DNA from: a virus
Lineage: Duplodnaviria; Heunggongvirae; Uroviricota; Caudoviricetes
DNA length: 19,614 nucleotides
Strand: one strand, 5' to 3'
IMG/VR virus record: IMGVR_UViG_2609459791_000004
Span: 1 to 19,614 of that record
Shown: positions 2,478 through 19,614 of the stretch, in pieces
How positions within the stretch are numbered: position 1 is the stretch's first letter
How the letters are laid out: the number at the start of each line of letters is the position of its first letter
The notes under the pieces: model-generated
Told to the model about the DNA's origin: nothing
Databases searched by the model: none
What the model saw: the letters and a program-made list of their open reading frames with translations, nothing else
Position numbers and translations under genes: made by a program

Positions 2478-3556
2478 AATCATTATTTACGTATCAGGAA
2501 GAGTTAAGGGTACAAGGGGTACTGGCGGACGTTAAAGCCCAGCCCTCCCATATCAGCAAGCCGCTGATGCAACGTATTGAATACTTCAGCAGCCTGGGCA
2601 GGCCAAAGGCTTATTCCCGCTATTTGCGTGAGACGATTAAGCCATGTCTGGAACGACTGGAGCATGTACGCGACAGTCAGCTATCCACTTCTTTTCGCTT
2701 TATGGCAAGCCATGAAGGGCTGGACGGCCTGCTGATCCTGCCTGAAATGAGTCAGGATCAGGTGAAACGCCTGTCTACTCTTGTCGCTGCGCATATGAGC
2801 ATGTGTCTTGATGCCGCTTGTGGTGATTTGTACGCCACCGATGATGTTAAGCCAGAAGAAATCCGCAAGACATGGGAAAAGGTGGCAGCAGAAACCCTGC
2901 GACTGGATGTCATACCGCCTGCGTTTGAGCAACTCCGCCGGAAAAGAAACCGCCGTAAACCCGTGCCCTATGAACTCATTCCGGGTTCGCTGGCGCGTAT
3001 GTTGTGCGCCGACTGGTGGTACCGGAAATTATGGAAGATGCGTTGCGAATGGCGGGAAGAGCAGTTGCGTGCTGTTTGCCTGGTCAGCAAAAAAGCATCT
3101 CCCTATGTCAGCTATGAAGCCGTGATGCATAAACGTGAGCAGCGCCGTAAGTCGCTGGAGTTTTTCCGTTCTCATGAACTGGTGAACGAAGACGGCGACA
3201 CGCTGGACATGGAGGATGTGGTAAACGCCAGCAGCAGCAACCCTGCGCATCGCCGCAATGAGATGATGGCCTGTGTTAAAGGTCTGGAGCTTATCGCGGA
3301 AATGCGCGGTGACTGCGCCGTTTTCTACACCATCACCTGTCCGTCACGTTTCCATTCCACGCTAAATAACGGCAGGCCCAACCCGACCTGGACAAATACG
3401 ACGGTAAGACAAAGCAGTGATTATCTGGTCGGCATGTTTGCTGCATTTCGTAAGGCGATGCACAAAGCCGGATTGCGCTGGTATGGCGTGCGGGTGACCG
3501 AAGTGCTGGAATGGCGGTATAAAGCGATTCAGAGAAGCGGGGCCAACGATGAGTGA
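2478..3556 (+). pseudogene. phage rolling-circle replication protein (P2/186 gene A-like) fragment, abutting the tRNA and running into the tape-measure start
   Basis: Open frame continues from the tRNA to 3556 with no credible start or RBS; first in-frame ATG is at 2567. Contains [14 protein letters not shown], which resembles Rep motif 1 of the phage GPA family from memory, but no HUH or active-site Tyr region follows. Its stop overlaps the tape-measure ATG, so the 3' part may derive from another gene (for example E'). Identity is from recalled motifs only. Confidence 0.35.
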
Positions 3557-5901: not shown

Positions 5902-6383
5902 TGATGGTGCTGGGATTGTACGTGTTTATGCTGCGCACCGTTCCGTATCAGGAACTGCAGTATCAACGCAGCTGGCGACATGCGGCAAACAGTCGGGTAA
6001 ACCGACGTCCGTCCACGCAGTTTCTGGGACCGGAAAACGACATGCTGACGCTTTCCGGTGTTCTTATGCCGGAGATAACAGGCGGCAGGCTGTCGTTGCT
6101 GGCACTGGAGCAGATGGCAGAACAGGGGAAAGCGTGGCCCCTGATTGAAGGCAGTGGCACGATTTACGGTATGTATGTGATTGAGGGACTGAATCAGACT
6201 AAAACGGAGTTTTTCCGCGATGGTATGCCGCGCCGGATTGAGTTTACCCTGTCGCTCAAACGGGTGGATGAATCCCTGTCCGATATGTTCGGTGATCTCA
6301 GTGCGCAGCTGAATAATTTGCAGGATACGGCAACGTCTGCCTTAAGCGATATCAGTAAAACGGTGGGAGGGCTGCTGTCGTGA
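5898..6383 (+). CDS. P2-like tail protein U
   Basis: 161-aa ORF whose ATG overlaps the tape-measure stop (ATGA). Size and position between T and D match the P2 T-U-D order. Confidence 0.75.
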   Translation: MMMVLGLYVFMLRTVPYQELQYQRSWRHAANSRVNRRPSTQFLGPENDMLTLSGVLMPEITGGRLSLLALEQMAEQGKAWPLIEGSGTIYGMYVIEGLNQTKTEFFRDGMPRRIEFTLSLKRVDESLSDMFGDLSAQLNNLQDTATSALSDISKTVGGLLS

Positions 6384-7480
6384 ATTTCAGCTCTGAACTG
6401 CTTAACAAAGGCAACAAAACTCCGGCATTCAGCATCAGTATTGAAGGCAGGGATATCACTACTGTGCTGGACAACCGCCTGATGGGGCTTACGCTGACGG
6501 ATAACCGGGGCTTTGAAGCGGACCAGCTTGATCTGGAGCTGGACGACGCCGATGGAAAAATCGTGCTGCCGCGCCGTGGTGCGGTCATTACGCTGGCGCT
6601 GGGCTGGAAGGGGCAGCCGCTTTTCCCGAAAGGGGCATTCACGGTGGACGAGATTGAACACACTGGCGCACCGGACCGCCTGACTATCCGGGCGCGAAGT
6701 GCTGATTTTCGTGAAACACTGAATACCCGCCGTGAAAAATCGTGGCATAAGACCACCGTCGGGGAAGTGGTGAAGGAAATAGCCGCGCGGCACAAGCTGA
6801 AGATGGCACTGGGTAAAGACCTGTCGGATAAGCCAGTGGAGCATATAGACCAGACTAATGAGAGTGACGGCAGTTTTCTGATGCGGCTGGCGCGACAGTA
6901 CGGTGCCATCGCGTCGGTGAAAAATGGCAATCTGTTATTCATCCGGCAGGGGCAGGGCAAAAGCGCCACTGGTAAACCTCTGCCAGTGATCACTATCACA
7001 CGCAAGGACGGCGACAGTCACCGATTTACCCTGGCAGATCGCGGAGCTTACACGGGCGTAATTGCCAGCTGGTTGCATACCCGCGAACCCGCGAAGAAAG
7101 AAAGCACCGCGGTGAAGCGTAAGCGCAGGACTAAGAAGCAGAAGAAAGAGCCGGAAACGAAGCAGGGCGATTATCTGGTGGGTACGGATGAAAACGTGCT
7201 GGTACTTAATCGCACCTATGCTAATCGGAGTAACGCCGAACGGGCAGCGAAAATGCAGTGGGAACGCCTGCAACGCGGCGTTGCGTCATTCTCGCTACAA
7301 CTGGCGGAAGGGCGGGCAGATCTCTACACGGAAATGCCAGTGAAAGTCAGTGGCTTTAAACAGCCGATAGATGATGCGGAATGGACCATTACGACTCTGA
7401 CGCATACCGTCAGCCCCGATAACGGTTTTACAACCAGTATTGAACTCGAAGTGAAGATTAATGATCTTGAAATGGAATAA
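6380..7480 (+). CDS. P2-like late tail protein D
   Basis: 366-aa ORF with GTG start overlapping the U stop. Position directly upstream of ogr matches the P2 order, and size is close to P2 gpD. Confidence 0.78.
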   Translation: MNFSSELLNKGNKTPAFSISIEGRDITTVLDNRLMGLTLTDNRGFEADQLDLELDDADGKIVLPRRGAVITLALGWKGQPLFPKGAFTVDEIEHTGAPDRLTIRARSADFRETLNTRREKSWHKTTVGEVVKEIAARHKLKMALGKDLSDKPVEHIDQTNESDGSFLMRLARQYGAIASVKNGNLLFIRQGQGKSATGKPLPVITITRKDGDSHRFTLADRGAYTGVIASWLHTREPAKKESTAVKRKRRTKKQKKEPETKQGDYLVGTDENVLVLNRTYANRSNAERAAKMQWERLQRGVASFSLQLAEGRADLYTEMPVKVSGFKQPIDDAEWTITTLTHTVSPDNGFTTSIELEVKINDLEME

Positions 7481-7548
7481 AGTGTTCTCAATATTGATAT
7501 TTTTTGTATCATTACAATGATTCTGATAGCAAAGGTAGGGATCTGGAT

Positions 7549-7767
7549 ATGATGAATTGTCCAAAGTGTGGTCATGCGGCACACACAAGGAGCAGTTTTC
7601 AAGTAACTGAAAGCACCAAAGAGCGTTACTGCCAGTGCCAAAATATTAACTGCGGGAGCACTTTTGTTACTCATGAAACAGTGGTCCGGTTTATTGTGAC
7701 ACCCGCACTGATTGCTACTGCTCCTCCACATCCATTGCCAGGTGGTCAGGGGCATATGAATTTTTGA
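7549..7767 (+). CDS. ogr: Ogr/Delta-family zinc-finger late transcription activator
   Basis: 72-aa product MMNCPKCGHAAHTRSSFQVTESTKERYCQCQNINCGSTF with the CxxC-N22-CxxxxC zinc finger of P2 Ogr. GGTAGGG Shine-Dalgarno about 8 nt upstream of the ATG at 7549. The ORF-track start at 7504 (TTG) is probably too long. Confidence 0.85.
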   Translation: MMNCPKCGHAAHTRSSFQVTESTKERYCQCQNINCGSTFVTHETVVRFIVTPALIATAPPHPLPGGQGHMNF

Positions 7768-7774
7768 GAAAGAG

Positions 7775-7797
7775 AACCTGCTACGGCAGGTTTTTAT
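7775..7797 (+). terminator. rho-independent terminator downstream of ogr
   Basis: Hairpin CCTGC-tacg-GCAGG followed by TTTTTATT, starting 8 nt after the ogr stop. Confidence 0.7.
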
Positions 7798-7907
7798 TCA
7801 TCTGGGATCTCACCCGTTTCAAGAAAATGTATAAAGCCAGGCTCATCTATGATGATTGTGCCTTTCATCCTGGCTGCCGATACTTTTGATGGGCCTGCAT
7901 TGTAACC

Positions 7908-8285
7908 TCAACAGAGCATCTGAAGGCTTTGGGTTATAGAGGTTCTTACCGTTAATCCTTGTTCATTCGCCTTATCAACCAATCTTTCTTTATCTGCTTT
8001 CTTAAATCCGGTGAAACACACATCGAATGTATTTTTTTTCGGACCAGACTGCTTAGTGAGATGTGAGTAGCTTTCGGGGAGGAATGACGCGCATTCCTGA
8101 ATGGCTTGTTCTGGTGAATCGTACTGTTTAAGAATGCGGTCTTTTCGGAAGGTTTTTATTCGATCGGTGTTCTTACAAATGCCCTGTATATGATTTTCGC
8201 TATAACTGATGCTCTGTATAGAGTGAACAGCGATACGACCATTTGCATTGATGTAAACAAAGTGAAGTTCTTCCATGTGAAACAT
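7908..8285 (-). CDS. hypothetical protein with WYL-like N-terminal region and a truncated BRCT-like C-terminal segment
   Basis: 125-aa ORF in AT-rich DNA. N-terminal FVYINANGRIAVHSIQSIS...RIKTFRKDRI resembles the WYL-domain RxFRxDRI signature. C-terminal FDVCFTGFKKADKERLVDKANEQGLTV looks like the start of a BRCT fold but stops early. No clear Shine-Dalgarno. Confidence 0.35.
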   Translation of the reverse strand: MFHMEELHFVYINANGRIAVHSIQSISYSENHIQGICKNTDRIKTFRKDRILKQYDSPEQAIQECASFLPESYSHLTKQSGPKKNTFDVCFTGFKKADKERLVDKANEQGLTVRTSITQSLQMLC

Positions 8286-8363
8286 CTTTGCATGATTTCA
8301 AGATGGTGACAGGCAAGATGGACGCAAAAGTCTGTCGCCATTTTGCCGCCACTACCAAAGAAA

Positions 8364-8398
8364 AAGGGGCTACGCTTTCACGTAACCCCTTGATTTAT
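8364..8398. terminator. bidirectional hairpin flanked by A/T runs
   Basis: GGGGCTACG-ctttca-CGTAACCCC (9-bp stem, one mismatch) with AAAAA on the 5' side and TTGATTTATTT on the 3' side. Confidence 0.4.
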
Positions 8399-8421
8399 TT
8401 GGTGGGCTGGCGGAGTCTGAA
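8399..8421 (-). other. candidate attR core of the P4-like element: degenerate copy of the 3' end of the tmRNA gene ssrA
   Basis: Plus strand TTGGTGGGCTGGCGGAGTCTGAA resembles the reverse complement of the ssrA 3' end as I recall it (TGGTGGAGCTGGCGGGAGTTGAA) with two 1-nt gaps and one mismatch. It lies just outside the crr-like iterons, at the end of the element opposite an IntA-like integrase. From memory only, no alignment run. Confidence 0.3.
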
Positions 8422-8583
8422 TAACTCACGTAAATATCTGTTAATAGGTGGCTTTAACCAATTCAACTTTCTTCGGTATACCTAAGCGTATACCAATGGC
8501 GATTTGTTGCAGCGCTTCCTGTGATTAAGAGAACCTGTTTTTGGATAAATCACATCTAGAAAAAAACTTTTTTTTAGAAAAAC

Positions 8584-8675
8584 TGTTCACACTGTTCACT
8601 GTGCATTTTTATTTATAAAATTCATGACATTACGGGGTGAATGGTTGGTGAACAGTGAACACTTTACTGTTCATT
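8584..8675. repeat. iteron cluster resembling P4 crr (cis replication region), with adjacent A/T tract
   Basis: TGTTCAC at 8584-8590 and 8594-8600; GGTGAACA at 8647-8654; GTGAACA at 8655-8661; degenerate copies at 8636-8642 and 8668-8675. Both orientations present. Preceded by AAAAAAACTTTTTTTT at 8561-8580. TGTTCACC is, from memory, the P4 type I iteron bound by alpha. Confidence 0.6.
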
Positions 8676-8722
8676 TTACTGGCTCACAGAGGATTACCAT
8701 ACGAATCCTTAAGGACTTGCGG

Positions 8723-9523
8723 TCATTTTCGCCATTCTCTTGTTCCACTAATGTTAGACATCACATCGTCGAAGTTGAATTTTGGATCTGTATCTGGATT
8801 AAATTGGCCATTTTTACTTTCATAAATGAAATTTTGACAATCACAATTGCTGTCACTTTCGCCGCAGTCCATGCATTCAGCATTACAGTAATCTATCATC
8901 CTATCAATGGCATCCCAGGGCTCATAATCGTAGTCGAAATGTCCATAACCACTACTGCCATAAATTCTTCCATTTATGAAGTCGTCAATGTCACTAATAT
9001 TTCTTAACTGGCAGTTGAAAATATTTGATATAGGTCTAAGGACTACCCTCGCATAATCAAATTTGTATAAGGGCATTTCAAAGAAAACCTTACCATTATC
9101 AGCTTTAAGACTGTGAAAAGATAAATCTCCATATTTTTCTATAAGTTCCTTATATCTTTTTTTATCCAGCTCAACATGCTTGAATGAGTTGTTAATCGCA
9201 TCCAAAAGAGAAAACTTATTGCTAATGTGCTTACTCCCATCCACTTCATATCGTTTATCGAAGCTTTTAATAAAATCAGTTCTGGTTATTTCAGTTTTCT
9301 TTTTTGCAATAAATATCATGTAATCAACAACGTGAGCCAAGATTGCGTTAAATGAAAATACATGATGAAGCTTCAGTGTATTGTTGTTTAGTATTGTGAA
9401 AAACTCTTCAGATGCTGGGGTTAAAACATTATCCAAATAAGAAAGGAGATAGCTTGCATCTTTTTCATCGGAGCTGCCTGTGTATAGTTCTATTGCGCTT
9501 CCTTGATGGTTGAGATTTATCAT
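8723..9523 (-). CDS. hypothetical Cys-rich protein, cargo ORF between the crr-like iterons and alpha
   Basis: 266-aa ORF in an AT-rich block inside the GC-rich satellite backbone. C-terminal cluster CNAECMDCGESDSNCDCQ suggests possible metal binding. No family recognised. Confidence 0.55.
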   Translation of the reverse strand: MINLNHQGSAIELYTGSSDEKDASYLLSYLDNVLTPASEEFFTILNNNTLKLHHVFSFNAILAHVVDYMIFIAKKKTEITRTDFIKSFDKRYEVDGSKHISNKFSLLDAINNSFKHVELDKKRYKELIEKYGDLSFHSLKADNGKVFFEMPLYKFDYARVVLRPISNIFNCQLRNISDIDDFINGRIYGSSGYGHFDYDYEPWDAIDRMIDYCNAECMDCGESDSNCDCQNFIYESKNGQFNPDTDPKFNFDDVMSNISGTREWRK

Positions 9524-9689
9524 TAATAACCGCCAGTAAGTTCTATTAATCTGGGAAAATTAACCGTGATAAATGAAGTATAGCGACTTCCTTCATTGCT
9601 ATGCAATCATACGATTGTTTCATTACATTGAATCAATTCTCACTCAGAACTGTATCTTAAATTGTGCATAATGTCTGGACTGAGAGTGC

Positions 9690-9715
9690 AAAAAAAAGAC
9701 CGGCGATTGCCGGTC
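9690..9715 (-). terminator. rho-independent terminator downstream of alpha
   Basis: On the minus strand, hairpin GACCGGC-aatc-GCCGGTC followed by T8, about 10 nt after the alpha stop. Confidence 0.7.
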
Positions 9716-9723
9716 AGGTCAGG

Positions 9724-12057
9724 TTATTTCGCTAGGGGGTCATCACATTTCGGCAGCCAGTCGGCGTTGCTTTCCTCTCTTAACGCGAGATTGGTTTGTA
9801 TGCCCTGATTTTTTCGGCGCTTCTCATAACTTAGCCCGTACTCTTTCAGCATGGCTGGCAGCCCCTTACCGAACATGGTGAGGCTGAGAGTATTCCTGTA
9901 GCCGTGGGCTTCCATATACGCCAGATAGGCATGATACAAATACAGGCGCGGCTGACGCGGAATGATGTTGGCATTGCCAATATACATGCCCTCAGGCTCC
10001 GGCAGTGCCTCCAGATAGCCACAAAAATCAAAGGCCGGATCGGCGTCGCGTTTGATGCTGAGTGCCTCGTCGGAGTTCTGCTGTGACTGGAGCAGGGCAC
10101 GCGCTGTCATCGGGTTGCTGAACTTCTGCATAAGCTGGCGCACAATCACGGCCAGCTCGCGCGCAATTTTATCCCTGAGCTGCGGGTCGCGTTCCTCCGG
10201 GGCAATCTGCTCAGGGAAGTGGATGATTACCCGGCGACGGGAAACACCGCCGCTGCGGTCGGTAAAGCGCATCGGGTTATTGTTCACGGCCAGAATCACC
10301 GCAGGAATATGGGTGGAGTACGCATCCTTGTATTTCGGGTCAACGGAGACCGCATCCCCGCCGGTGATGGCCTTGAGTCCTGCCCCGTCACCGCTCCATT
10401 TCTCCTGGTCAGGCAGACGGATTAGCGAGAAGCCAATCAGCGCAGCACGTTCACGCGGCGACTCCAGCGTTTCGATAGTGGCCGATGTGGCGTTATCTTC
10501 CCCGGCAAGCATGGTCGCAATTTCGGCCAGAATACTTTTTCCGCTGCCACCGGGTCCGGTCACCTCAAGAAAGAGCTGCCAGTCGTAACGGTTCGCCAGC
10601 ACCATAAACAGCGCGGCCAGAATCACGTCGCGTTTTTCCGGTTTGCCACCGGCGGCGCGGTCGAGCCAGCGCCAGAACTCCGGGGCGTGGGTTTCCAGCG
10701 TTTCCCCCTCTACCGGTGGGGTAAAATCGACATCACAGAGTGTGCGCAGCCAGTGCGATTTATGGTGTGGGCTGAAAGTACCCGTGGCGGTATCGAGTAC
10801 TCCGTTACGAAAGCCAATCAGACGCCGTGCCGGGGCATCCTGCTGCGGAATAATCAGTTTCAGGGTCTCCACCACTGAGGCAATTTTCCCCGACGAGAAC
10901 GGTGCGCGCAGACGCTGGAACAACCCGGCCACGTCGCGGGCAAAATCCGACGGCGGAATGATTTTCCATATCCCGGCCTCATAGCGGGACAGGAGCTGGC
11001 CGTTTGCATCCACGGCCAGCGCTTCGCCGTAATGCTCATGCACCCGCATCGCCTTTTCACTGGTGCTCATGGCGGTAAATTCTGCCTCGCTCATGGTAGC
11101 GAAAGGGCTGTCAGCCGGTGGCCGGATGGCGTCATAAATCGCTTTTCGTGTCGCCTCTTCGCCTTTCTGAACAAACGCATCATTCCAGTCACCGAATACC
11201 GGCGGCAGGGCAACAACGCCTTCACAGGCTTCTGCGGCCGCGGCGGCTTTACTCTGACCATCGCCGTTCAGGTCACGGTCGGCGGCGAGGACAATCTGAC
11301 AGGCCGGGTGTTTCTGGCGGACAAGGCTCGCCAGAGAAAGGAGGTTCACGGACGACAGTGCCACCATGACGGTTTCACCGGTCAGGTGATGCACGGTGAG
11401 CGCGGTCGCATAGCCCTCCGCTATCCACAGGCGTTTTCCGGCCTGTTTCTTCCCTTCGATGACATGACATGCTCCTTTAACCTGACCGCCCTTCAGGGTG
11501 CGTTTGAGACCGTCAGAATTGATGAGCTGAAGGTTTACCAGCGCGCCGGTATCGTCATACAGCGGGACAACCACATCCCCGGCGCGGAACGTCACGCCGC
11601 CGGTTTTATGCATGACCGTAAGTACCGGACATTCCCGGTCGGGGAAGCCCTTGCGGGTCAGGTAGGCGTTGCCGCTGGCAGGTTGGGTTTTCTCCATGAG
11701 CCTGACGGTCAGTGCGGCCGCCGCTTTGCGGTCAGCCTCCGTTTCAGCCTCTGCGGCCGCAATCACTTCGGGGGCAACCGGTGGCAGGTTGCCGGTCACG
11801 GCGTCCACCCTCCCGGCAGCCTCTGATGCGGTCACGCCAAACACTTTCTCGACCAGCTTAAGACCGTCACCCGCACCGCACTGGTTACAGAACCACGTCC
11901 CGCGTCCCTCTTTATCGTCAAAGCGGAAACGGTCAGAGCCGCCGCACATCGGGCAGGCCTGATGCCGGTTTTTCATGACCTTCACACCAAGCGCCGGAAG
12001 AATGCGCGGCCAGTGGCCGCACGCCTGTTTTACCGTCTCTGTTACGTTCATTTTCAT
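9724..12057 (-). CDS. P4 alpha-type bifunctional primase-helicase
   Basis: 777 aa, the same length as P4 alpha. N-terminal zinc-binding CPMCGGSD...FCNQC, primase motif EGYATA, Walker A GPGGSGKS. GAGGGAG Shine-Dalgarno upstream of the ATG at 12057. Confidence 0.9.
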   Translation of the reverse strand: MKMNVTETVKQACGHWPRILPALGVKVMKNRHQACPMCGGSDRFRFDDKEGRGTWFCNQCGAGDGLKLVEKVFGVTASEAAGRVDAVTGNLPPVAPEVIAAAEAETEADRKAAAALTVRLMEKTQPASGNAYLTRKGFPDRECPVLTVMHKTGGVTFRAGDVVVPLYDDTGALVNLQLINSDGLKRTLKGGQVKGACHVIEGKKQAGKRLWIAEGYATALTVHHLTGETVMVALSSVNLLSLASLVRQKHPACQIVLAADRDLNGDGQSKAAAAAEACEGVVALPPVFGDWNDAFVQKGEEATRKAIYDAIRPPADSPFATMSEAEFTAMSTSEKAMRVHEHYGEALAVDANGQLLSRYEAGIWKIIPPSDFARDVAGLFQRLRAPFSSGKIASVVETLKLIIPQQDAPARRLIGFRNGVLDTATGTFSPHHKSHWLRTLCDVDFTPPVEGETLETHAPEFWRWLDRAAGGKPEKRDVILAALFMVLANRYDWQLFLEVTGPGGSGKSILAEIATMLAGEDNATSATIETLESPRERAALIGFSLIRLPDQEKWSGDGAGLKAITGGDAVSVDPKYKDAYSTHIPAVILAVNNNPMRFTDRSGGVSRRRVIIHFPEQIAPEERDPQLRDKIARELAVIVRQLMQKFSNPMTARALLQSQQNSDEALSIKRDADPAFDFCGYLEALPEPEGMYIGNANIIPRQPRLYLYHAYLAYMEAHGYRNTLSLTMFGKGLPAMLKEYGLSYEKRRKNQGIQTNLALREESNADWLPKCDDPLAK

Positions 12058-12071
12058 CGTTATTTTCTCCC

Positions 12072-12392
12072 TCAGTGCATGACAGGCGATGTGATATGAC
12101 GGGCACAGAGCTCATCCATCACGGCCAGCCCGAGGAAGGACAGCGACGGGGCAGCTTTCAGTGGTCCGGCTTCCATTAAATCTTCCAGCAGTGCACAGGC
12201 AATCTGGCGGCCTTTTTCCTCGCCGTGCTGGCGCAGGTAGAAGCCCTCCAGCTCGGCGGCAATGGCGCTTTCCAGCGCGTCAAGGGTGAGGTGTGGGTAG
12301 CGGCACTGGCGTTCGCACAGGGTCAGCCATGCACAGGCCACGGCGCGCCGATATAGCGCGGCGCGTAATACGGGCGGTAATGGCTTTTTCAT
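12072..12392 (-). CDS. P4-like left-operon protein (orf upstream of alpha)
   Basis: 106-aa ORF immediately upstream of alpha; its start overlaps the stop of the preceding small ORF by 4 nt. GC-rich backbone composition. Confidence 0.5.
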
Positions 12393-12616
12393 ACGTTGCC
12401 CTCCCCGGTCAGCCAGCGCTGATTGCAGCGCTCTACCACGCCGTCGAGCTGGGCGGTCATAAGGTAAATCACGGAGGTGAGTTGCGACTGCTGTGCAGGG
12501 TCACGACGAACGGTCGCGCAGTCCTGCACCTGCATCAGCTCGTTGACGAGCTGGCCGACGTTGCGCATGTGCTCCAGACATTCGAGGTCACGGGCGCTAA
12601 TCGTGGTGTGTCTCAT
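12389..12616 (-). CDS. small P4-like left-operon protein (possibly Eps or Icd-like)
   Basis: 75-aa ORF with 4-nt overlaps to both neighbouring ORFs (12613-12616 and 12389-12392). Identity is guessed from position only. Confidence 0.4.
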
Positions 12617-12807
12617 GCACGCACCTCCGCAACCGGCAGGCGGCCAGCGAACGAGAGGACGTAATCGCGAACAAGGGAACGACGTGCAGCGTGTTCATCA
12701 CCGGCAACGGTGCGGAGCATACAGATACGGGGTTTACGGTCTGCACGACGAACGGCGGCAAACACAAAAACAAACTGCGGGTGTGACGGGGTGAGGATAG
12801 TAGCCAT
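12613..12807 (-). CDS. small P4-like left-operon protein (64 aa)
   Basis: Internal ATG of the long ORF-track frame, with GGAGG 8 nt upstream; stop overlaps the next ORF. The rest of the 185-aa frame is low-complexity and covers the leader region. Confidence 0.35.
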
Positions 12808-12829
12808 GATGGCAGCCTCCATTGAGTAG

Positions 12830-13015
12830 CGGTTACTGCTACCACCGGAAACGCCAATTTCACTGGTGGCAGCCCGAACGGGGTTGGCGTAACCGGCCTC
12901 AATGGATACCGGCCAGCCCGAAGGCTGCCCCGCCCGGACTACCATTATCTTGCTGGAACCATGGTGTATAAAAAGACACCACAGCCCGGAAAATGGGTGT
13001 GCCTGAGCTACGACG
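12830..13015 (-). ncRNA. candidate P4-type immunity leader (CI RNA and seq-like repeats)
   Basis: Noncoding stretch between the leader terminator and the first small ORF. Repeated AGCCCGAA (12871-12878 and 12915-12922) and GGCGTT(T)CC elements, plus hairpin CAGCC-cgaa-GGCTG. Position matches the P4 cI region. Exact RNA ends not determinable here. Confidence 0.25.
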
Positions 13016-13038
13016 AAAAAAAAGACGCACGGCGCGTC
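13016..13038 (-). terminator. leader terminator downstream of the PLE-like promoter
   Basis: On the minus strand, hairpin GACGC-gccgt-GCGTC followed by T8, about 60-80 nt downstream of the predicted start. Confidence 0.4.
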
Positions 13039-13101
13039 TGGTGTCGCCATTGAGTTTCGCGGAACGCCAATTCCGGCTGTCGATTTTGCGACAGCGGGAA
13101 A

Positions 13102-13131
13102 ACTATACCTGGAAACGGCGAAAAGAAGCAA
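13102..13131 (-). promoter_or_regulatory. sigma70-like promoter, candidate P4 PLE
   Basis: On the minus strand, TTGCTT-N18-TATAGT. A 7-bp stem-loop (GCTGTCG/CGACAGC) lies at the predicted transcript 5' end. Confidence 0.4.
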
Positions 13132-13166
13132 GCCAGAAAAAGGGTCTGTTTGCTGAACGGTCATCA

Positions 13167-13433
13167 TCATGCGTCATAGCCCCGGTTGCGTTCGGCAATA
13201 CGATCCGCCATCCATGCTGTGATTTCAGACTGCGCCCACGCCACGTTTTTTCCGCCCAGGCTGATTTGTTTCGGGAAAGCCTCGCGGCTGATGAGGTCGT
13301 AAATGGTTGACCGGGACAGGCCGCACAGATGCATCACTTCAGGCAGGCGGATAAAGCGCTCCTGAACGGCATCAGAAACCGGCATCAGTGGTGCGGCAGG
13401 GGCAGAAGACGGGGAAGAAAAAGCGGTGTGCAT
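13167..13433 (-). CDS. AlpA/Vis-family DNA-binding regulator or excisionase
   Basis: 88 aa with [32 protein letters not shown], typical of AlpA/Vis HTH proteins. GAGGT Shine-Dalgarno upstream. Confidence 0.8.
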
Positions 13434-13699
13434 CGGGCTACCTCATAATGTCCATACAGTGCCGGTCATGTCCGTCCGGCTTCGGGTAGCTCCTTATTAT
13501 GTCTATATTTTTCCTCAGGTCATGTGAGATTTTCGGGGAAACAAACATTGACTTTTCGCTCTGGCAAACAAAGACAAACGCTGGCAAAGATATGCAAATC
13601 ACTGCATTACAATGCAGCAATTTCTATTGCTTTTAGTTATACATTTTTCATTTTTAATCGAAATAAAATCTAAGTGGTTTGGACAGAGCAAAACAGGAG

Positions 13700-13804
13700 G
13701 GTGAACAGTGGTGAACAGAGGGTGAACAGTCAGACCCTCAACTGTTCACCCTTTATCTTACTGTATTACTTATATTTTTATTTAAGGTGAACAGTGGTGA
13801 ATAG
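13700..13804. repeat. iteron cluster resembling the P4 replication origin
   Basis: GGTGAACA at 13700-13707, 13710-13717, 13721-13728 and 13786-13793; inverted TGTTCACC at 13743-13750; degenerate GGTGAATA at 13797-13804. Includes an 11-bp inverted repeat GGGTGAACAGT-N10-ACTGTTCACCC. Flanked by A/T-rich DNA. Confidence 0.6.
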
Positions 13805-13880
13805 TTATAAGTAAAAAAACAAACGGTGAGTAAGGTTTTGCTGAGACCTTTCTCTGGCCAGCCGGGTTTTAAGTGTTGTT

Positions 13881-13898
13881 TGTGCCAGAACTGCCACA
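13881..13898 (+). promoter_or_regulatory. TGT-N12-ACA element, candidate Delta/Ogr activator site of the sid promoter
   Basis: TGTgccagaactgccACA centred about 81 nt upstream of the sid ATG. P2/P4 late promoters are known to carry a TGT-N12-ACA dyad around -55. Confidence 0.45.
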
Positions 13899-13970
13899 AC
13901 TGCAATGAATCGAGATGTTGTGTGATGAAGGGCAGAATCATTTCAGGTTGAATAAACGGAGAGCCTGAAC

Positions 13971-14714
13971 ATGAAACCCGAAACAGTCATTACCGCCCTG
14001 CAAGACGTTGCCGCCAAGCAGTACGCAGAGAACAGCCAGCACGTCACCGACAAGCTGAGCGTATTTACTGCGGCAAGAGACACCCACGCGGCCAGCATGC
14101 AGGTACTGAAAGAGATTGATACGTCCATTCAACGCTGTAAGCAGGAGCGGCAGACCGCTCTCGATGAGAGCGCAGAAGCGGAGCAGGACTGGCGCAGCCG
14201 CTTTCGCACCCTGCGCGGCAGTCTTACCCCTGAAATGAAAGCTGAGCACAGCAGGCGTATCGCCAGCCGCGAGCTGGCCGACGAGTTCACCAGCCTGATT
14301 GCCGAGCTGGAGGCCGACCGGACGCGCGCCATGCTGACTGCCTGCTCCACCGGCAATAAATACCTTTCAGCGCATGAAGATGCCTTTACCGCTTATGCCG
14401 GTGCGGAATGGGCTCAGGCTGTCAATGCGGTTCCTGTCACCCTCATCCGCGCTTTCCTGCTGCGCATTCGTGCCCTCGAAATGAAGGGAGAAAGCGCCCC
14501 GCAGTCCGTGGCCACTGGCGAGCTGCGCGATGCGCTGAGTCGTCAGGGCAGCCTGTATCACTTCGATATGACGCAGGAGCCGGTGTTGTCCGTGACGGGC
14601 ATGCACCGGCCGCAGATTACAGGCGTGGATACGGAGCTGTTACGCAGCCCTGCGAAGAGAATGATGCTCGCCAGAAAGCTGGCTGAAAATGGCGAGACAG
14701 AAGCGGAGGGGTAA
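13971..14714 (+). CDS. sid: P4 Sid-like capsid size determination protein
   Basis: 247 aa, alpha-helical charged composition, first gene of the sid-delta-psu block. GGAGAG Shine-Dalgarno. Confidence 0.75.
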   Translation: MKPETVITALQDVAAKQYAENSQHVTDKLSVFTAARDTHAASMQVLKEIDTSIQRCKQERQTALDESAEAEQDWRSRFRTLRGSLTPEMKAEHSRRIASRELADEFTSLIAELEADRTRAMLTACSTGNKYLSAHEDAFTAYAGAEWAQAVNAVPVTLIRAFLLRIRALEMKGESAPQSVATGELRDALSRQGSLYHFDMTQEPVLSVTGMHRPQITGVDTELLRSPAKRMMLARKLAENGETEAEG

Positions 14715-14716
14715 GC

Positions 14717-14935
14717 ATGTTTCACTGCCCGTTCTGCAAAACCAGCGCGCATTCCCGCACCAGTCGCTATCTGTCCGATAACGTCAAACAGCGCTATCAC
14801 CAGTGCATGAACATCGAGTGCTCGGCCACGTTCCGCACGCTTGAATCCATCGACGGGGTTATTCGTTCACCGGTAACAGAGCCGGTCATCCCTGTACCCG
14901 CACCGGCGGCCACCGTTAACCGTGCCGGTGCGTAA
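14717..14935 (+). CDS. Delta (Ogr-family zinc-finger late activator), single-domain form
   Basis: 72 aa MFHCPFCKTSAHSRTSRYLSDNVKQRYHQCMNIECSATF with the same Cys spacing as Ogr. Starts 3 nt after the sid stop. Confidence 0.8.
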   Translation: MFHCPFCKTSAHSRTSRYLSDNVKQRYHQCMNIECSATFRTLESIDGVIRSPVTEPVIPVPAPAATVNRAGA

Positions 14936-14963
14936 GCACGGCCAGTCATCAGGAGAAACATAC

Positions 14964-15527
14964 GTGACCACACTGACGCTACAGAAAGCCTTTGAGACCT
15001 GTCAGGCAAACAAATCCGCCTGGCTGCAACGCAGGGAAGAACTGACGCAGGCCGAACAGGCATACCGCGAACAGCTTGCCGGCAGCGGGCACAGCGGCCG
15101 GAGCCTGCAAACGCTACGTGAAATTATTGACGTGAAAAAATGGGAAATTAATCAGGCTGCCGGTCGCTATATCCGCTCGCATGAGGAGGTGCAGCGCATC
15201 AGCATCCGCGACCGATTAAATGATTTTATGCAGGCGCACGGCGCGGAGCTGGCCGCCGCCCTCGCCCCGGAGCTGATGAATTATCCCGGGCAACACCCCG
15301 CCATTCAGCGCTGCGCCATGCAGCACTCACTCGACTGTCTGCGTGAGGCGCTACAGGTCTGGCTGGCCGTTGGTGAAAAAATTAATTATTCGGCGCAGGA
15401 CAATGACATTTTAACGGCCATCGGATTCAGGCCTGACGCGGCTTCGCGCGATGATAGCCGTGAAAAATTCACACCTGCACAGAACCTGAATTACACCCGC
15501 CGTCGTGCAGAACTGGCTGCGCAGTAG
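14964..15527 (+). CDS. psu: P4 Psu-like polarity suppression protein
   Basis: GTG at 14964 preceded by AGGAG with 9-nt spacing, giving about 187 aa, close to P4 Psu. Last gene before the cos-like region. Confidence 0.75.
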   Translation: MTTLTLQKAFETCQANKSAWLQRREELTQAEQAYREQLAGSGHSGRSLQTLREIIDVKKWEINQAAGRYIRSHEEVQRISIRDRLNDFMQAHGAELAAALAPELMNYPGQHPAIQRCAMQHSLDCLREALQVWLAVGEKINYSAQDNDILTAIGFRPDAASRDDSREKFTPAQNLNYTRRRAELAAQ

Positions 15528-15573
15528 TCCTTTCAAAAATCCCCAAAAATCCCGCCATTTTTACGTAAAAAAG

Positions 15574-15600
15574 CCATGCATGCATAAGGTGCATGGTTTT
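15574..15600 (+). terminator. rho-independent terminator after psu
   Basis: Hairpin CCATGCA-tgcataagg-TGCATGG followed by TTTT. Confidence 0.6.
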
Positions 15601-15693
15601 GCATGCGCTTTACCGACACTGTATTCCCCGCCAGCGCCAGCACTGGCGCGCCCTGAGGCCGGTCATGCGCCTGCATTAAAAGCGCCCCCTTAA

Positions 15694-15718
15694 GCGGGCA
15701 GGCGGGGCGGGGAGAGCA
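15694..15718. other. candidate cos site
   Basis: GCGGGCAGGCGGGGCGGGGAGAGCA resembles the P2/P4 19-nt cohesive end as I recall it (GGCGAGGCGGGGAAAGCAC). Sits between psu and the cargo hotspot, where P4 cos lies. Confidence 0.3.
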
Positions 15719-15896
15719 TTGCGCGCCATAGGCTCTTATCATTTATTTGATATATCTTTTTAGAAACTGCGAAACAGACTAAAAAATCATGATCATCCCT
15801 TTGATTTGTAGGTAGAATTCGATCAATAGTATGAGTTGATTGGATGCTGATACAAAAGCTATTTAACTATACATTTGATGTCATGGAGGGGTTATA

Positions 15897-16370
15897 TTGT
15901 TTAAGCGGAAAAATAAAAATTCAGTTCCTTCATTTACACAAGATTTTCATTATCTTACTGCCCTCATTCAGCATTTAGGTGCTCATGAGAAATGGAATAG
16001 CAGAACACCAAGGAATATAGCCGACAGTCTTGGGATGGATATAAATGAAGTCGAAAGAGTTTTGCGGTCATACCCGGCATTCTTCAGGCGGTCGGGAAAC
16101 CTTAGTACTCAAGGAGAACCGCTTTTCATGATTCATTTGCGATATGCGAGAAGAAGACGAAATGCCGATGATGGTTCACGAGAGTCCCCACCTGTTGAAC
16201 CAGCTGAACTAGGTATGATGCTAGATCTTGTTACTAAAATGATTGCAGTGGAAGAGCAAGGTAGGCGGTTGTCAGTTGATGAAAGAAATAACAGTCTTAA
16301 ATTGTGGTTGGCGATATTGCTTGCAGCTATTTCAACATTAACCACCTTGGCTGTAGCATATATAAAATGA
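15897..16370 (+). CDS. small C-terminally membrane-anchored protein with a possible HTH-like segment; first gene of the hotspot operon
   Basis: 157 aa with TTG start 7 nt after GGAGG. C-terminal hydrophobic helix LKLWLAILLAAISTLTTLAVAYI. Segment RNIADSLGMDINEVERVLRS resembles a helix-turn-helix. AT-rich. Confidence 0.55.
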   Translation: MFKRKNKNSVPSFTQDFHYLTALIQHLGAHEKWNSRTPRNIADSLGMDINEVERVLRSYPAFFRRSGNLSTQGEPLFMIHLRYARRRRNADDGSRESPPVEPAELGMMLDLVTKMIAVEEQGRRLSVDERNNSLKLWLAILLAAISTLTTLAVAYIK

Positions 16371-16377
16371 GGTTCAT

Positions 16378-18384
16378 ATGAAATTGATTTCATTCAGGAT
16401 TAAAAATTATCGCTCAATTTTTGATAGTGGGATAATAACGACTGAGAAATTGACGGCAATACTTGGTAGAAATGAAAGTGGAAAGACCAATTTATTATCC
16501 GCACTTTATAGCCTAAAACCAGCAGAGGAATTTAGTGCCCTTGATAAAATTAAAAACTTTCCAAGAAATAGAAGGTTAGAAGAGTGCGATGACTCGACTA
16601 GAGTTGTGGAGTCTACATGGGAGTTAACAGACTCAGAATTAGTTGAGTTAGGACGCATCTACCCAAGAGCAAAAAACAGTAAACAGGTAACTGTAACTAG
16701 AAATTATAGCAAATCTAGACAAGTTGGATTCTCAAAAATTGAACCATTTGACTATGATGCAAATGCGATTAAGAAAAAATTCGGCAAAGTCTTGCTGAAT
16801 ATTGAAAATGCTATAGACGATAATGAATATGATGGAGTAGATAAAGAAACTATTCTAATTCAGTTTCGCAATCTAATCTCTGAGATTTCTCCTGATGACA
16901 ACGAGGGAGTTTTTTCTTGGGCTGGTAAAGTTGGTGAGAAAATTAATGAATTGAATAAGGGTTTTGATAAATATGATTTAGTAATAAAAGAAGATAATGA
17001 GACTTTCATTGACTCTATGAGCGAGTTGATAGTTGGAGTGAAAAATGATGCAGCTTTAAGTCAAAAGGCCAGGGATTGGGTTGTTCAGACCATGCCTGTA
17101 TTTATTTACGTTGATGAATATCCCGAGCTTGAAGGACATCAAAATATTGGGCAATACTTCGAGAGGAAAAGACTTAACAATCAAAGTAAAGCTGATGTGA
17201 ATTTTGATAAGCTATGTAAAGTTGCAGGCATTAAGCCAGAGCAATTGCACGAAAACAAAAATGATCCTGAGGTAAGGAATCAGCTAGCTAACCGTGCAGG
17301 GGCTGTTGTAACACAGGAAATTCATAGATTATGGAAAGATAAACCGCTAAAAATTCGATTCAATCTTGATAATGATTATTTTCATACCTATGTTTCTGAT
17401 CATAACAGTGGATATGATGTTGAAGTAAATCTCGATGAAAGAAGTCGCGGTTTTAAATGGTTCTTCTCTTTCTATATTACATTTTGTGCAGATACACATG
17501 GGGGGGATGCTGAGAATGCAATTATTTTGTTAGATGAGCCCGGCCTATACTTGCATGCTAAATCTCAAGGGGATTTGTTAAATCATCTAATTGATGACTT
17601 TGCTAATCAAATTATATATACAACACATTCACCATTCTTAGTTCCTGTGAAGGATATTTCTGCTATAAAAACTGTTTCGATCTCTGAAGAGGAAGGAACA
17701 AAAGTCACTAATGATCCTAGTGGTGATTCTACAACTTTATTCCCTCTCCAGGCAGCGTTAGGATATGATATTGCTCAGTCGTTATTTATTGGCTCTCATA
17801 ATTTGATTGTAGAGGGTGTAACTGATTATTGGTATATATCGGCATTATCTGAATACCTCATTTCTAAGGGCATGACCGGGCTGAATGACAACATTACAAT
17901 CACTCCTGCTGGAGGAGCACAGAAAGTATCTTACTTAGTATCTTTGCTATCATCCCAAAATCTTAATGTTGTTCTTCTTTTAGACGATGAGAGAAATAGT
18001 CGTCAGACCTCTATAGAAATAGTAAATGGAAAACTGATAGGGCAGAAAAATATTGTCTTTGTATCAGAGGTTCAAAGTGGGGATGTTACAGAGGTTGATA
18101 TTGAGGATCTGTTTGATAAAGAAATGTTCAGAAGACTTATATCAGAGGCCTATTTTCCAGATGTAAGTGAAGAATTAAAGTTTAATGACAAAGTTCCGAG
18201 GATAACTAAGCAAGCTGAAGAGGCTTTGAAACTGCACAAAATGAAATTTGTGAAAGCTAAACCAGCTAGGTTGTTCTTATCTAAATTGAAGGATGCGAAT
18301 GGTGATTTTCTATCTCTTGAAGTAATGAGGAAATTCGAGGCTTTATTTAAAATAATTAATAAAAAGATCTCATCCAAGAAATAG
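16378..18384 (+). CDS. OLD-family ABC-type ATPase fused to a Toprim nuclease domain
   Basis: 668 aa. Walker A GRNESGKTN near the N-terminus after an IKNYRSI beta-strand motif; signature-like DERSRGFKWFFSF; Walker B AIILLDEPGLYLH; His-switch YTTHSP. C-terminal Toprim-like IVEGVTDYWY and LLLDDE. GAGG Shine-Dalgarno 5 nt upstream of the ATG, 7 nt after the upstream stop. Confidence 0.8.
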   Translation: MKLISFRIKNYRSIFDSGIITTEKLTAILGRNESGKTNLLSALYSLKPAEEFSALDKIKNFPRNRRLEECDDSTRVVESTWELTDSELVELGRIYPRAKNSKQVTVTRNYSKSRQVGFSKIEPFDYDANAIKKKFGKVLLNIENAIDDNEYDGVDKETILIQFRNLISEISPDDNEGVFSWAGKVGEKINELNKGFDKYDLVIKEDNETFIDSMSELIVGVKNDAALSQKARDWVVQTMPVFIYVDEYPELEGHQNIGQYFERKRLNNQSKADVNFDKLCKVAGIKPEQLHENKNDPEVRNQLANRAGAVVTQEIHRLWKDKPLKIRFNLDNDYFHTYVSDHNSGYDVEVNLDERSRGFKWFFSFYITFCADTHGGDAENAIILLDEPGLYLHAKSQGDLLNHLIDDFANQIIYTTHSPFLVPVKDISAIKTVSISEEEGTKVTNDPSGDSTTLFPLQAALGYDIAQSLFIGSHNLIVEGVTDYWYISALSEYLISKGMTGLNDNITITPAGGAQKVSYLVSLLSSQNLNVVLLLDDERNSRQTSIEIVNGKLIGQKNIVFVSEVQSGDVTEVDIEDLFDKEMFRRLISEAYFPDVSEELKFNDKVPRITKQAEEALKLHKMKFVKAKPARLFLSKLKDANGDFLSLEVMRKFEALFKIINKKISSKK

Positions 18385-18389
18385 GAACT

Positions 18390-18417
18390 ATGCCCGTCAG
18401 CATGACGGGCATGTTTT
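18390..18417. terminator. hairpin terminator between the convergent hotspot operon and integrase
   Basis: ATGCCCGTC-agcat-GACGGGCAT (9-bp perfect stem) followed by GTTTT, between stops at 18384 and 18421. Confidence 0.6.
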
Positions 18418-18420
18418 AGC

Positions 18421-19614
18421 TTAGTGTATGTTTCTTACCTTTATACCCCACCATTCCATCAGTGATTTTCGTTGTTCTAAGTAAGTGGAACGGTTATATG
18501 CCTTTCTAACTTCATTTTTATCGGAATGAGCCAATGCCGCTTCGATTACATCCGCATTAAAGCCTTGTTCATTTAGGGTTGTACTAGCAATAGATCTTAA
18601 ACCATGCGCAACAAGCTTCCCACCGTAACCAATTCTCTTCAACGCGGCATTAGCTGTTTGACTATTCATCGGTTGCTTTGGATCATTTCTGCTCGGAAAA
18701 ATATGTTCACGATGAGCGCTGATTGGCTTCATCACTTCCAGAATATCTAATGCCTGTGTCGATAGGGGAACAATATGCTCACGCTTGGCCTTCATCCGCT
18801 CGGCTGGAATAGTCCAGAGCTTCGCTTCGAGATCGATCTCTGCCCAACGAGCACCGGAGGCTTCAGAAGGGCGCACAAGGGTCAGAAGTTGCCACTCAAT
18901 AAGACAACGCGTCGGAACAGACAGATTAGACATAACCAAAGAACGCATCAGCTTCGGTAATTCTTCTGGCCGCAGAGTCGGCATGTTTTGTTTTTTTGGT
19001 TTCTCAAATGCCATACCAATTCCTGACGCAGGGTTGGCATCAATCAAACCGGTGTTAACCGCATAAATCATGATCTCGTTTATGCGCTGCACCAGTCGAC
19101 GAACAGTCTCAAGCGCTCCACGAGCCTTGATTGGCTCAAGGGCTTCAACCAGAGTTCGGGCTTTGATTTGCTGAACGGGGATCTCACCGATGGCAGGGAA
19201 TACATCTTTCTCCAGTGAGCGCCAAATGTCTTTTGCGTAATCAGGAGTAACGCTTTTGCTTTTGAGCTGGAACCAGTTAGCGGCGACCGTTGAAAAAATA
19301 CTGTCCAGCTCGATTTGCTGCTGTTCCTCTGCAACTTCAGCCTGAATTTGCGGGTCGATTCCGTTGGCTAGCAAGGCTAGGTAATCCGCTCTCAACCCTC
19401 GGGCATCAGCAAGCGAAAGGGCAGGGAAGGCACCGAGCCCCATCATTGTCCGCTGCTTTGTTGTCGGACGTTGATAACGAAAACGCCAGAGTTTTTTCCC
19501 GCTGGTTTTCACTATCAGGAAAAGCCCATCGCCATCATGCAGCGTTAGATCCTTCTCCAACGCTTTAGCGCGCAGAACTTCGGTGTTGGTCAGGGGGCGT
19601 GTTGTCCGTGCCAC
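18421..19614 (-). CDS. P4-type tyrosine integrase (IntA-like)
   Basis: 397 aa. N-terminus ARTTRPLTNTEV...DGDGLFLIVKTSGKKLWRFRY resembles CP4-57 IntA. C-terminal catalytic residues in HGLRSIASTTL and VRKAYNRSTYLEQR. Apparent GTG start sits on the last three bases of the window, so the true start may lie just outside. Confidence 0.88.
   Translation of the reverse strand: MARTTRPLTNTEVLRAKALEKDLTLHDGDGLFLIVKTSGKKLWRFRYQRPTTKQRTMMGLGAFPALSLADARGLRADYLALLANGIDPQIQAEVAEEQQQIELDSIFSTVAANWFQLKSKSVTPDYAKDIWRSLEKDVFPAIGEIPVQQIKARTLVEALEPIKARGALETVRRLVQRINEIMIYAVNTGLIDANPASGIGMAFEKPKKQNMPTLRPEELPKLMRSLVMSNLSVPTRCLIEWQLLTLVRPSEASGARWAEIDLEAKLWTIPAERMKAKREHIVPLSTQALDILEVMKPISAHREHIFPSRNDPKQPMNSQTANAALKRIGYGGKLVAHGLRSIASTTLNEQGFNADVIEAALAHSDKNEVRKAYNRSTYLEQRKSLMEWWGIKVRNIH

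Follow-up and report, generated by a model that had tools for sequence, protein, structure and literature searches.

Introduction

Enzymes of the OLD family are sorted into classes according to the genes that accompany them, namely a single gene (class 1), a GajB partner as in Gabija (class 2), a retron (class 3) or the PARIS arrangement (class 4) (PMC10568477). Those of class 1, such as P2 Old, Vc OLD of Vibrio cholerae and the Thermus scotoductus enzyme of PDB entry 6p74 (TsOLD), consist of an ATP-binding cassette (ABC) ATPase with a helical insert followed by a C-terminal Toprim domain, and abortive infection is the mode of action of two of them, Vc OLD and P2 Old (PMC12392090). The present work concerns a pair of adjacent genes in a 19,614-nucleotide stretch of viral DNA (Caudoviricetes; IMG/VR record IMGVR_UViG_2609459791_000004, positions 1 to 19,614; this whole stretch is called the window below), lying between psu and int in a P4-like satellite. 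The large gene encodes a 668-amino-acid protein of OLD type and the small gene, immediately 5′ of it, a 157-amino-acid protein predicted to combine a winged helix with a C-terminal membrane anchor, which as a partner belongs to none of the four described OLD contexts. Our favoured reading, held with a confidence slightly above even, is that the pair is a class-1-type OLD defence nuclease with an accessory protein that was gained once and whose probable task is to tether the nuclease at the inner membrane or to gate it there.

As a catalogue entry the pair is not new. A preliminary description, made from the DNA alone, had allowed that it might be an undescribed system, but the same two proteins form P4 system #78 of Rousset et al. 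2022 (Cell Host Microbe; Table S1B, PMC9122126), where they carry nearly the same comment; the small protein printed there has one extra N-terminal residue, owing to an earlier start call, and the large protein agrees fully as far as it is printed. The large protein also appears in Table S1A as WP_032182295, and five occurrences of #78 are given for the E. coli set of that study (PMC9122126). The distribution of the pair, the fold of the small protein and the restriction of the pairing to one clade are new relative to that entry. No trace of the pair was found in the text of the Domainator paper or in papers on class 1 OLD enzymes, and the “Toga” system of a 2026 preprint on P4/P2 repertoires is a different protein. 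The models of PADLOC version 2.0.0 miss the pair as a system, since they include none for the small protein and give the ATPase weak Old, AriA and GajA scores.

The large protein

Judged by its sequence and predicted fold, the large protein can be assigned firmly to the OLD family of ABC ATPase–Toprim enzymes, as a member of a large, divergent, previously unnamed and mostly single-gene subfamily. Its ATPase part matches Pfam AAA_15 (E = 2e-18, 67.5 bits against a cut-off of 32.1) and AAA_21 (4e-16, 60.3 bits against a cut-off of 27), includes a helical insert as in class 1 OLD, and has, in the N-terminal part of the protein, a Walker A motif, a signature-like motif, a Walker B motif and an H-loop; the signature-like residues S356-R357-G358 are, like the other three motifs, invariant in an alignment of 38 homologues. 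The C-terminal Toprim domain has the conserved Glu and the acidic metal-binding cluster expected of the family, and six of its residues (E479, G480, D483, D536, E576 and D577) stay invariant down to homologues of about 24–30% identity; the classical second Asp of the DxD motif is here E538, which is not conserved in distant members. When 38 family members were tested, all 38 matched the Pfam model OLD-like_TOPRIM (PF20469) and none matched DUF4435 at E 0.1, on which grounds the protein is filed as an OLD-family enzyme and not as a fused PARIS protein.

Structural comparison points the same way. The nearest solved structure by sequence is 6p74 (E = 7e-6 with the single sequence and 7e-10 with a family profile), at a very low similarity of 28–41 bits, and when an AlphaFold2 (AF2) model of the protein (predicted local distance difference test, pLDDT, 82) was searched with Foldseek, 6p74 came first (E = 3.9e-12 across 607 columns), with PtuA, GajA and Eco8 ranking next, so that the fold is like that of a solved OLD protein. 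The TM-scores against 6p74 are low (0.28/0.35), which probably reflects a differing orientation of the domains, and TsOLD is shorter, with 528 amino acids in the PDB entry against 668 here. Among PADLOC models the best is Old (2e-20), ahead of AriA, PtuA and GajA, all of them weak. Pfam, PADLOC, Foldseek and the Pfam test of the 38 members thus agree on the architecture that the preliminary description had proposed, a complete ABC-type ATPase followed by a Toprim-like domain.

Comparison with the other described systems

Class 1 shares more with the locus than domain architecture: carriage on mobile elements is common to both, and a single-gene context is what most orthologues of the large protein have. 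What separates them is a conserved upstream partner in the clade to which the large protein belongs, which the definition of class 1 excludes (PMC10568477); a stand-alone gene is found neither at this locus nor anywhere in that clade (28 of 28 paired), though it is found in 41 orthologues outside it.

PARIS likewise joins an ABC ATPase to a Toprim-type nuclease and is frequent in the same P4 hotspot. Both its forms (AriA with AriB, or fused AriAB) were rejected, given the absence of DUF4435 matches just described, a score of only 46 bits for the fused AriAB model of PADLOC, whose best-scoring stretch is a short local match, and the lack of a separate AriB; the AriA models reach 1e-19 on the ATPase part. 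We know of no PARIS system described with a membrane partner. As a caveat to this exclusion, a distant profile-level relation of the large protein to DUF4435 does exist, and the HHpred-based label given to it by Rousset et al. includes that family (PMC9122126).

For the remaining classes it is the missing partners that decide. Gabija (class 2) was rejected as the ATPase gene is followed by a convergent integrase gene and the hotspot holds no open reading frame (ORF) for a UvrD-like helicase; Septu, as there is no ORF for an HNH protein (PtuB), the ATPase has a Toprim domain of its own and the NCBIfam PtuA model scores 39 bits against a cut-off of 500; and class 3 or retron type I-B, as there is no reverse transcriptase ORF, an Rfam scan of 15400-18500 at E 1 gives no RNA family, and the Eco8 effector model of NCBIfam scores 35 bits against a cut-off of 250. 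Models and structures of GajA and PtuA do match the ATPase, all of these being defence ATPases of one superfamily. With GajB, HNH and separate AriB partners all absent, the earlier view that the locus is not Gabija, not two-gene PARIS and not Septu stands.

The small protein

No model or sequence in Pfam, PADLOC, NCBIfam, PHROGs or the PDB matches the small protein, in agreement with the initial impression that it is unlike any component of described OLD systems. An AF2 model, confident at pLDDT 87.5, gives a winged helix, a single long helix and a C-terminal anchor, and a hydrophobic C-terminal segment is present in every homologue, so that the helix-turn-helix and the single C-terminal transmembrane helix suspected at the outset both find support; for system #78, Table S1B of Rousset et al. 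likewise gives the Phobius result “1 TM in protein 1” (PMC9122126). In the family alignment the N-terminal half is extremely conserved and is followed by a conserved helix, in which E104, M115 and E119 are invariant, and then by the hydrophobic tail, where A139xxxA143 is near-invariant. Compared with a 74%-identical homologue, the small gene is saturated at synonymous sites (proportion of synonymous differences, pS, 0.86) at a non-synonymous proportion (pN) of 0.175, the mark of a protein-coding gene under strong purifying selection; taken with the number of homologues (for the small ORF 64 with a word-indexed search and 227 clusters with a profile; more than 7900 for the ATPase family), this shows that both ORFs are real genes and did not arise by chance.

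Transmembrane partners in systems of the P4/P2 hotspots are generally thought to be suicide effectors (Rousset et al., PMC9122126), and an explanation along those lines would have the OLD-like ATPase sense infection and trigger oligomerisation of the small protein, which would permeabilise the inner membrane in an abortive infection and leave the Toprim domain a secondary part. Besides that general view, the transmembrane helix itself lends this some colour, being rich in small residues with a near-invariant AxxxA, a feature of self-associating helices. We nevertheless consider it unlikely: a single C-terminal helix with one residue beyond it is a minimal anchor and not a typical pore former, the part most strongly conserved is the cytoplasmic winged helix and not the transmembrane segment, and the acidic Toprim residues are invariant throughout the family, paired or not, which argues that the nuclease is the conserved effector.

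Pairing of the two genes

The link between the two genes was followed on a neighbour-joining tree of 69 non-redundant ATPase orthologues. The 28 that are accompanied by the small gene form one clade, drawn from Enterobacterales, Vibrio and marine Gammaproteobacteria, in which every member is paired (28/28); the other 41 are without it, and none of these falls inside the clade (0/41). Such monophyly implies that the partner was gained once and has been kept since, the ancestral state being a single-gene relative of class 1 OLD, and the small protein is therefore a lineage-specific addition and not a defining component of the ATPase family. The preliminary description had named absence of the small ORF from homologous loci as a finding that would speak against it, and this turns out to be half the case, the ORF being absent from 41 of the 69 loci and present throughout the clade. 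To call the pair a new variant is fair for the paired clade, where the pairing is strict and old, but not for the ATPase family.

That family extends well beyond the paired loci: the top 120 matches come from several phyla, measure about 653–706 amino acids and share 49% identity or more with the query. When each species was represented by one genome, a scan gave 229 ATPase relatives, and among the loci kept from it the small-protein profile finds a partner only in Vibrio and Escherichia; the same approach finds no small-protein partner within 3 kb of some 50 orthologues of 45–53% identity. Some unpaired orthologues follow hsdS or a methylase gene, two follow a gene for a DUF2188 protein and many have no same-strand neighbour; hsdS, BrxR and restriction-modification (R-M) genes are among the neighbours of unpaired orthologues. 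The DUF2188 gene, in two alphaproteobacterial loci (L016/L017, 5739-5981, and L026, 2727-2981), ends 20 nucleotides 5′ of the OLD-like ATPase gene, and its product may be a different small partner in another ATPase clade.

One might suppose that two independent genes simply travel together here, in the manner of old and tin of P2, with the small protein as a separate exclusion or housekeeping factor. The small-protein family does occur alone in many genomes and the ATPase alone in most, and in two metagenome contigs (L123, 1166-3655, and L133, 2141-4177) the small gene or a fragment of it stands directly after a different, distant OLD-like ATPase gene, as if the junction of the genes had recombined inside defence islands. 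Against this, gene order, spacing and a ribosome-binding site that overlaps the stop codon are kept from satellites through plasmids to marine defence islands, across proteins of only about 53–57% identity: the spacing is 7–11 nucleotides in every paired locus, and the ATPase gene lies directly 3′ of the small gene in 26 of 28 loci (the branch of at least 53% identity, where downstream sequence is available). Passengers would be expected to separate on such a time scale, and the paired ATPases are monophyletic, so that coincidental travel seems to us improbable.

The position of the small gene raises another question, since a first gene tightly coupled to the next is typical of regulator–effector and antitoxin–toxin pairs. 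The small protein might on these lines be a regulator or an antitoxin-like inhibitor that represses the operon or silences the OLD nuclease until infection or membrane stress releases it, the anchor serving only to sequester it; its fold is most like that of the MarR, IscR and ArsR repressors, and a basic RYARRRR tail follows the wing. If it bound an operator, one would look for that operator to be conserved, and this candidate had to be rejected: 19 upstream regions from different contexts share nothing conserved beyond the ribosome-binding site, and the only inverted repeat within 15690-15910 is a GC palindrome inside the cos-like block. The absence of any operator-like sequence travelling with the module counts against a classic autorepressor, and in the marine loci, where the small gene starts 5 nucleotides after hsdR, it lacks a separate promoter region. 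The putative recognition helix is, moreover, acidic and variable, the 41 unpaired orthologues apparently tolerate the nuclease without an inhibitor, and the distant members of the family stand alone, with no obvious target of regulation. A regulatory or inhibitory role is, on balance, rather unlikely.

The wider small-protein family

A profile search of 1.84 billion representative proteins returned 227 clusters of small-protein relatives, 155 of them at E ≤ 1e-10, most of which are 140–190 amino acids long and share the same plan of winged helix, helix and anchor. The deep branches of this family have no adjoining OLD gene: they are orphan genes with no recognisable defence genes nearby, found between rsmD and a DUF488 or patatin gene (on GC-rich contigs of betaproteobacterial appearance), beside an outer-membrane protein gene, between genes for a Na+/H+ antiporter and an AMP-binding enzyme, or 5′ of genes for a 294-amino-acid membrane protein and AbiTii. 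Seven loci (L128-L130 and L136-L139) have the small-protein relative in a fixed slot 3′ of rsmD with a patatin-like phospholipase gene downstream; in L136-L139 a DUF488 gene and a 63-amino-acid ORF intervene before the patatin gene, and the outer neighbours of the slot are variable. When distant relatives were sought in the phage and plasmid collections, only the 16 plasmids that carry the pair itself came up, and no phage.

The wider family is thus autonomous and lives without an OLD gene. Its deep branches have the same invariant residues as the paired branch, and from this it follows that the conserved winged-helix surface serves something general and not the binding of OLD. It may be that the small protein founds an unrecognised family, of these 227 clusters, of membrane-tethered nucleic-acid binders, and that in the paired clade it senses or captures incoming phage DNA at the inner membrane, making the stand-alone OLD enzyme a two-component, membrane-associated immune system in which both genes are required; this we regard as possible, if doubtful.

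Distribution and genomic contexts

The pair is rare and patchily distributed. It is intact in 1 of 5426 complete E. coli genomes, one further E. coli strain (two records) having a remnant broken by IS1, and it is present in 16 of 72,556 plasmids, which are IncF-type plasmids in Escherichia and plasmids of Enterobacter, Klebsiella and Vibrio. P4-like satellites carry it in the window and in two further loci (L098 and L102), an integrase-primase element carries it in Xenorhabdus, and in marine contigs it begins 5 nucleotides after hsdR of a type I R-M operon. The module is mobile between satellites, plasmids and defence islands.

Hotspot location, R-M neighbourhoods, mobility and rarity together make it probable, so far as genomic context can indicate, that the pair is an anti-phage module. 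The converse suggestion, that it serves the mobile element itself, for instance in DNA processing, maintenance or segregation at the membrane, could draw on the plasmid copies, which lie near partition, replication and leading-region genes, on the distant small-protein relatives in contexts without recognisable defence genes, and on the precedent of Cran1, an archaeal OLD-family class reported to act in cell-cycle progression and not in defence (PMC12796447). It seems to us very improbable nonetheless, since the locus occupies the psu–int slot of P4-like satellites, a documented carrier of anti-phage systems (PMC9122126), the pair follows a type I R-M operon elsewhere and unpaired orthologues lie in R-M and BrxR neighbourhoods, and its frequency among E. 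coli genomes and plasmids is the pattern of accessory defence cargo.

Proposed role of the pair

Several observations lead us to prefer tethering or gating of a class-1-type nuclease as the role of the small protein: elsewhere the nuclease manages without a partner, the small protein is conserved chiefly in a basic, cytoplasmic winged helix mounted on a rigid, membrane-fixed helix, gene order and coupling suggest co-assembly, and no operator is conserved. We would picture the small protein as made together with the nuclease and sitting in the inner membrane as a dimer or oligomer, its basic winged helix facing the cytoplasm, where it would hold or gate the OLD enzyme at the site of phage DNA entry. 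On infection, the ATPase-controlled Toprim nuclease would cut nucleic acid, which for other OLD enzymes is DNA or tRNA: P2 Old and AriB cleave tRNA, and Vc OLD and GajA nick DNA. The phage would thereby be stopped, and the infected cell probably lost with it.

A number of findings weigh against this proposal. With 41 orthologues unpaired, the small protein is evidently no general requirement of the nuclease, and between paired and unpaired ATPases there are just 13 clade-specific substitutions, mostly conservative, and no insertion; a docking feature gained by the paired ATPases was for these reasons rejected, no docking surface being evident. The predicted recognition helix of the small protein (amino acids 49–58) is acidic and variable, which does not favour sequence-specific binding of DNA. 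On the side of the nuclease, the match of the large protein to PF20469 is marginal (E = 5.9e-5, amino acids 476–536, 24.0 bits against a cut-off of 23.2), and a C-terminal-domain profile built from 12 diverse Toprim domains finds no solved structure in the PDB at E 10, as would befit a divergent subfamily. Finally, the #78 sequences are absent from the table of cloned, tested systems of Rousset et al. (PMC9122126), and searches by accession and by sequence did not find the pair in the text, supplements or tested sets of the 2026 P4/P2 repertoire preprint.

Membrane components coupled to soluble, nucleic-acid-targeting components are a feature of Kiwa (KwaA/KwaB) and Zorya (ZorAB with ZorC/D). 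What the present pair would have in common with these is a shared logic only, that of defence where phage DNA enters, without homology: the membrane part here is a single tail-anchored winged-helix protein of 157 amino acids with no periplasmic or multi-pass part, and a coupling of the Kiwa or Zorya kind is suggested by linkage only.

The locus and its surroundings

Exactly two ORFs lie between cos and int, both at the positions originally given for them (Table 1), and RefSeq annotates the same two coding sequences in E. coli MB20, the DNA of which matches window positions 15700-18420 at 100% identity. The short gap between them, with a GAGG overlapping the small-gene stop, fits one operon; of the translationally coupled operon first proposed, the operon part holds, and coupling is possible. 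Its AT-richness is clear from a GC content of 0.34–0.40 against 0.57–0.60 in the neighbouring psu, delta and sid genes of the satellite.

The placing of the pair in the psu–int hotspot is well founded. Pfam identifies both framework genes, and the window has the other markers of a P4-like satellite, namely alpha primase-helicase domains (Pfam), Ash, AlpA, DUF5375, a Psu-like sid homologue and, adjoining psu, an ogr/Delta-like gene (RefSeq annotation); ssrA adjoins int in MB20 (RefSeq), the satellite being integrated at ssrA. The limits described for the operon, with the psu hairpin and a cos-like block on the left and a hairpin terminator before the convergent int on the right, were likewise found. 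The GC-rich block is taken to be a cos site of the P2/P4 kind. Cloned P4 hotspot sequences in Table S2 of Rousset et al. have a near-identical counterpart of it, and it is conserved in L098 and L102.

Table 1 Features of the psu–int interval and of the two proteins encoded there (window positions; aa, amino acids).
Feature	Position	Strand	Evidence or remarks
psu, polarity suppression protein, left framework gene of the P4 hotspot	14922-15527	+	Pfam Psu, E = 1.1e-88; RefSeq “phage polarity suppression protein”
Terminator-like hairpin 3′ of psu, the weaker one	15579-15595	+	7-bp stem, then GTTTTGCATG
cos-like GC block GCGGGCAGGCGGGGCGGGGAGAGCATTGCGCGCC	~15695-15730	no strand	Direct reading
Shine-Dalgarno GGAGG of small gene	15885-15889	+	8 nt 5′ of start; direct reading
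Small gene	15897-16370	+	157 aa, TTG start, RefSeq WP_032182294; predicted tail-anchored winged-helix protein
Winged helix-turn-helix domain, aa 13-86 (predicted)	15933-16154	+	Invariant motifs HLGAHExW-SR-P, YPxFFR-S-N, HxRYARR
Predicted cytoplasmic part of long helix, aa 102-132, linking winged helix to anchor	16200-16292	+	AF2 helix 102-156
C-terminal transmembrane anchor, aa 133-157 (predicted)	16293-16367	+	Kyte-Doolittle mean 2.18 over 19 aa
Gene junction	16368-16380	+	TGA stop, overlapping GAGG, 7-nt gap, ATG; direct reading
Large gene	16378-18384	+	668 aa, ATG start, RefSeq WP_032182295; OLD-family ABC ATPase-Toprim (predicted)
Walker A GRNESGKT, aa 30-37	16465-16488	+	G30-K36 invariant in 38 homologues
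Walker B D386 E387 to H-loop H417	17533-17631	+	Invariant columns; aligns to 6p74, PtuA, AriA
Toprim core, aa 475-578: E479-G480-x-x-D483, D536, E576-D577	17800-18111	+	Invariant; PF20469 at aa 476-536
Bidirectional hairpin terminator, between convergent ATPase-gene and int stops	18389-18413	no strand	11-bp stem, 6 GC pairs, T run on both strands
P4-type tyrosine integrase, right framework gene	18421-19614	-	Pfam Phage_integrase, Phage_int_M, Arm-DNA-bind_3

Two further observations concern the rest of the satellite. A 19-nucleotide direct repeat, GGTGAACAGTGGTGAACAG, occurs twice, 86 bp apart, at 13700-13804, where an AT-rich control region separates the AlpA-like gene from sid, and is located in L001 at 16001 and 16087. 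At the far end of the satellite, beside the alpha primase gene, an ORF of 266 amino acids (8723-9523, minus strand; GC 0.33–0.37) has no match in Pfam, PADLOC, NCBIfam or PHROGs and may be a second, unannotated cargo gene.

To the left of the satellite, window positions 2384-8421 are a P2-like prophage remnant. Its ORF at 2384-3556 fuses a replication gene A domain to a GpE fragment, indicating a large internal deletion, and is followed by a tape-measure-like ORF (3549-5144) and by gpD (6380-7480); from gpD to 8421, the annotation of matching prophages gives gpD, ogr, a small BRCT-like gene and an att fragment derived from ssrA. A remnant of helper type and the P4-like satellite (about 8422-19614) therefore stand one behind the other at ssrA, whereas in MB20, which has the same satellite, ypjA and IS1 take the place of the remnant. 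An ORF of 125 amino acids at 7908-8285 (minus strand) matches PHROG 2561 “DNA ligase” (E = 1e-53), is a BRCT domain protein by RefSeq annotation in other strains, and has weak similarity, by PADLOC models, to the C-terminal ends of SspE and PDC-S48. At its left end the window cuts an alpha-amylase-family ORF (1-1842, minus strand), whose counterpart in MB20 is annotated as a pseudogene.

Implications

The field has yet to explain how class 1 OLD enzymes stay silent until they are activated (PMC10568477), and the paired clade offers a natural comparison for it, with near-identical nucleases that do and do not have a membrane partner; the effect of the partner could be on localisation, on gating or on phage range. 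Were the small protein indeed to make the OLD enzyme of the paired clade a two-component immune system, a fifth kind of gene context would join the four described. Tail-anchored winged-helix proteins related to it are spread across bacteria as a family that lacks annotation, and a role for the small protein here would serve to annotate those genes as well.

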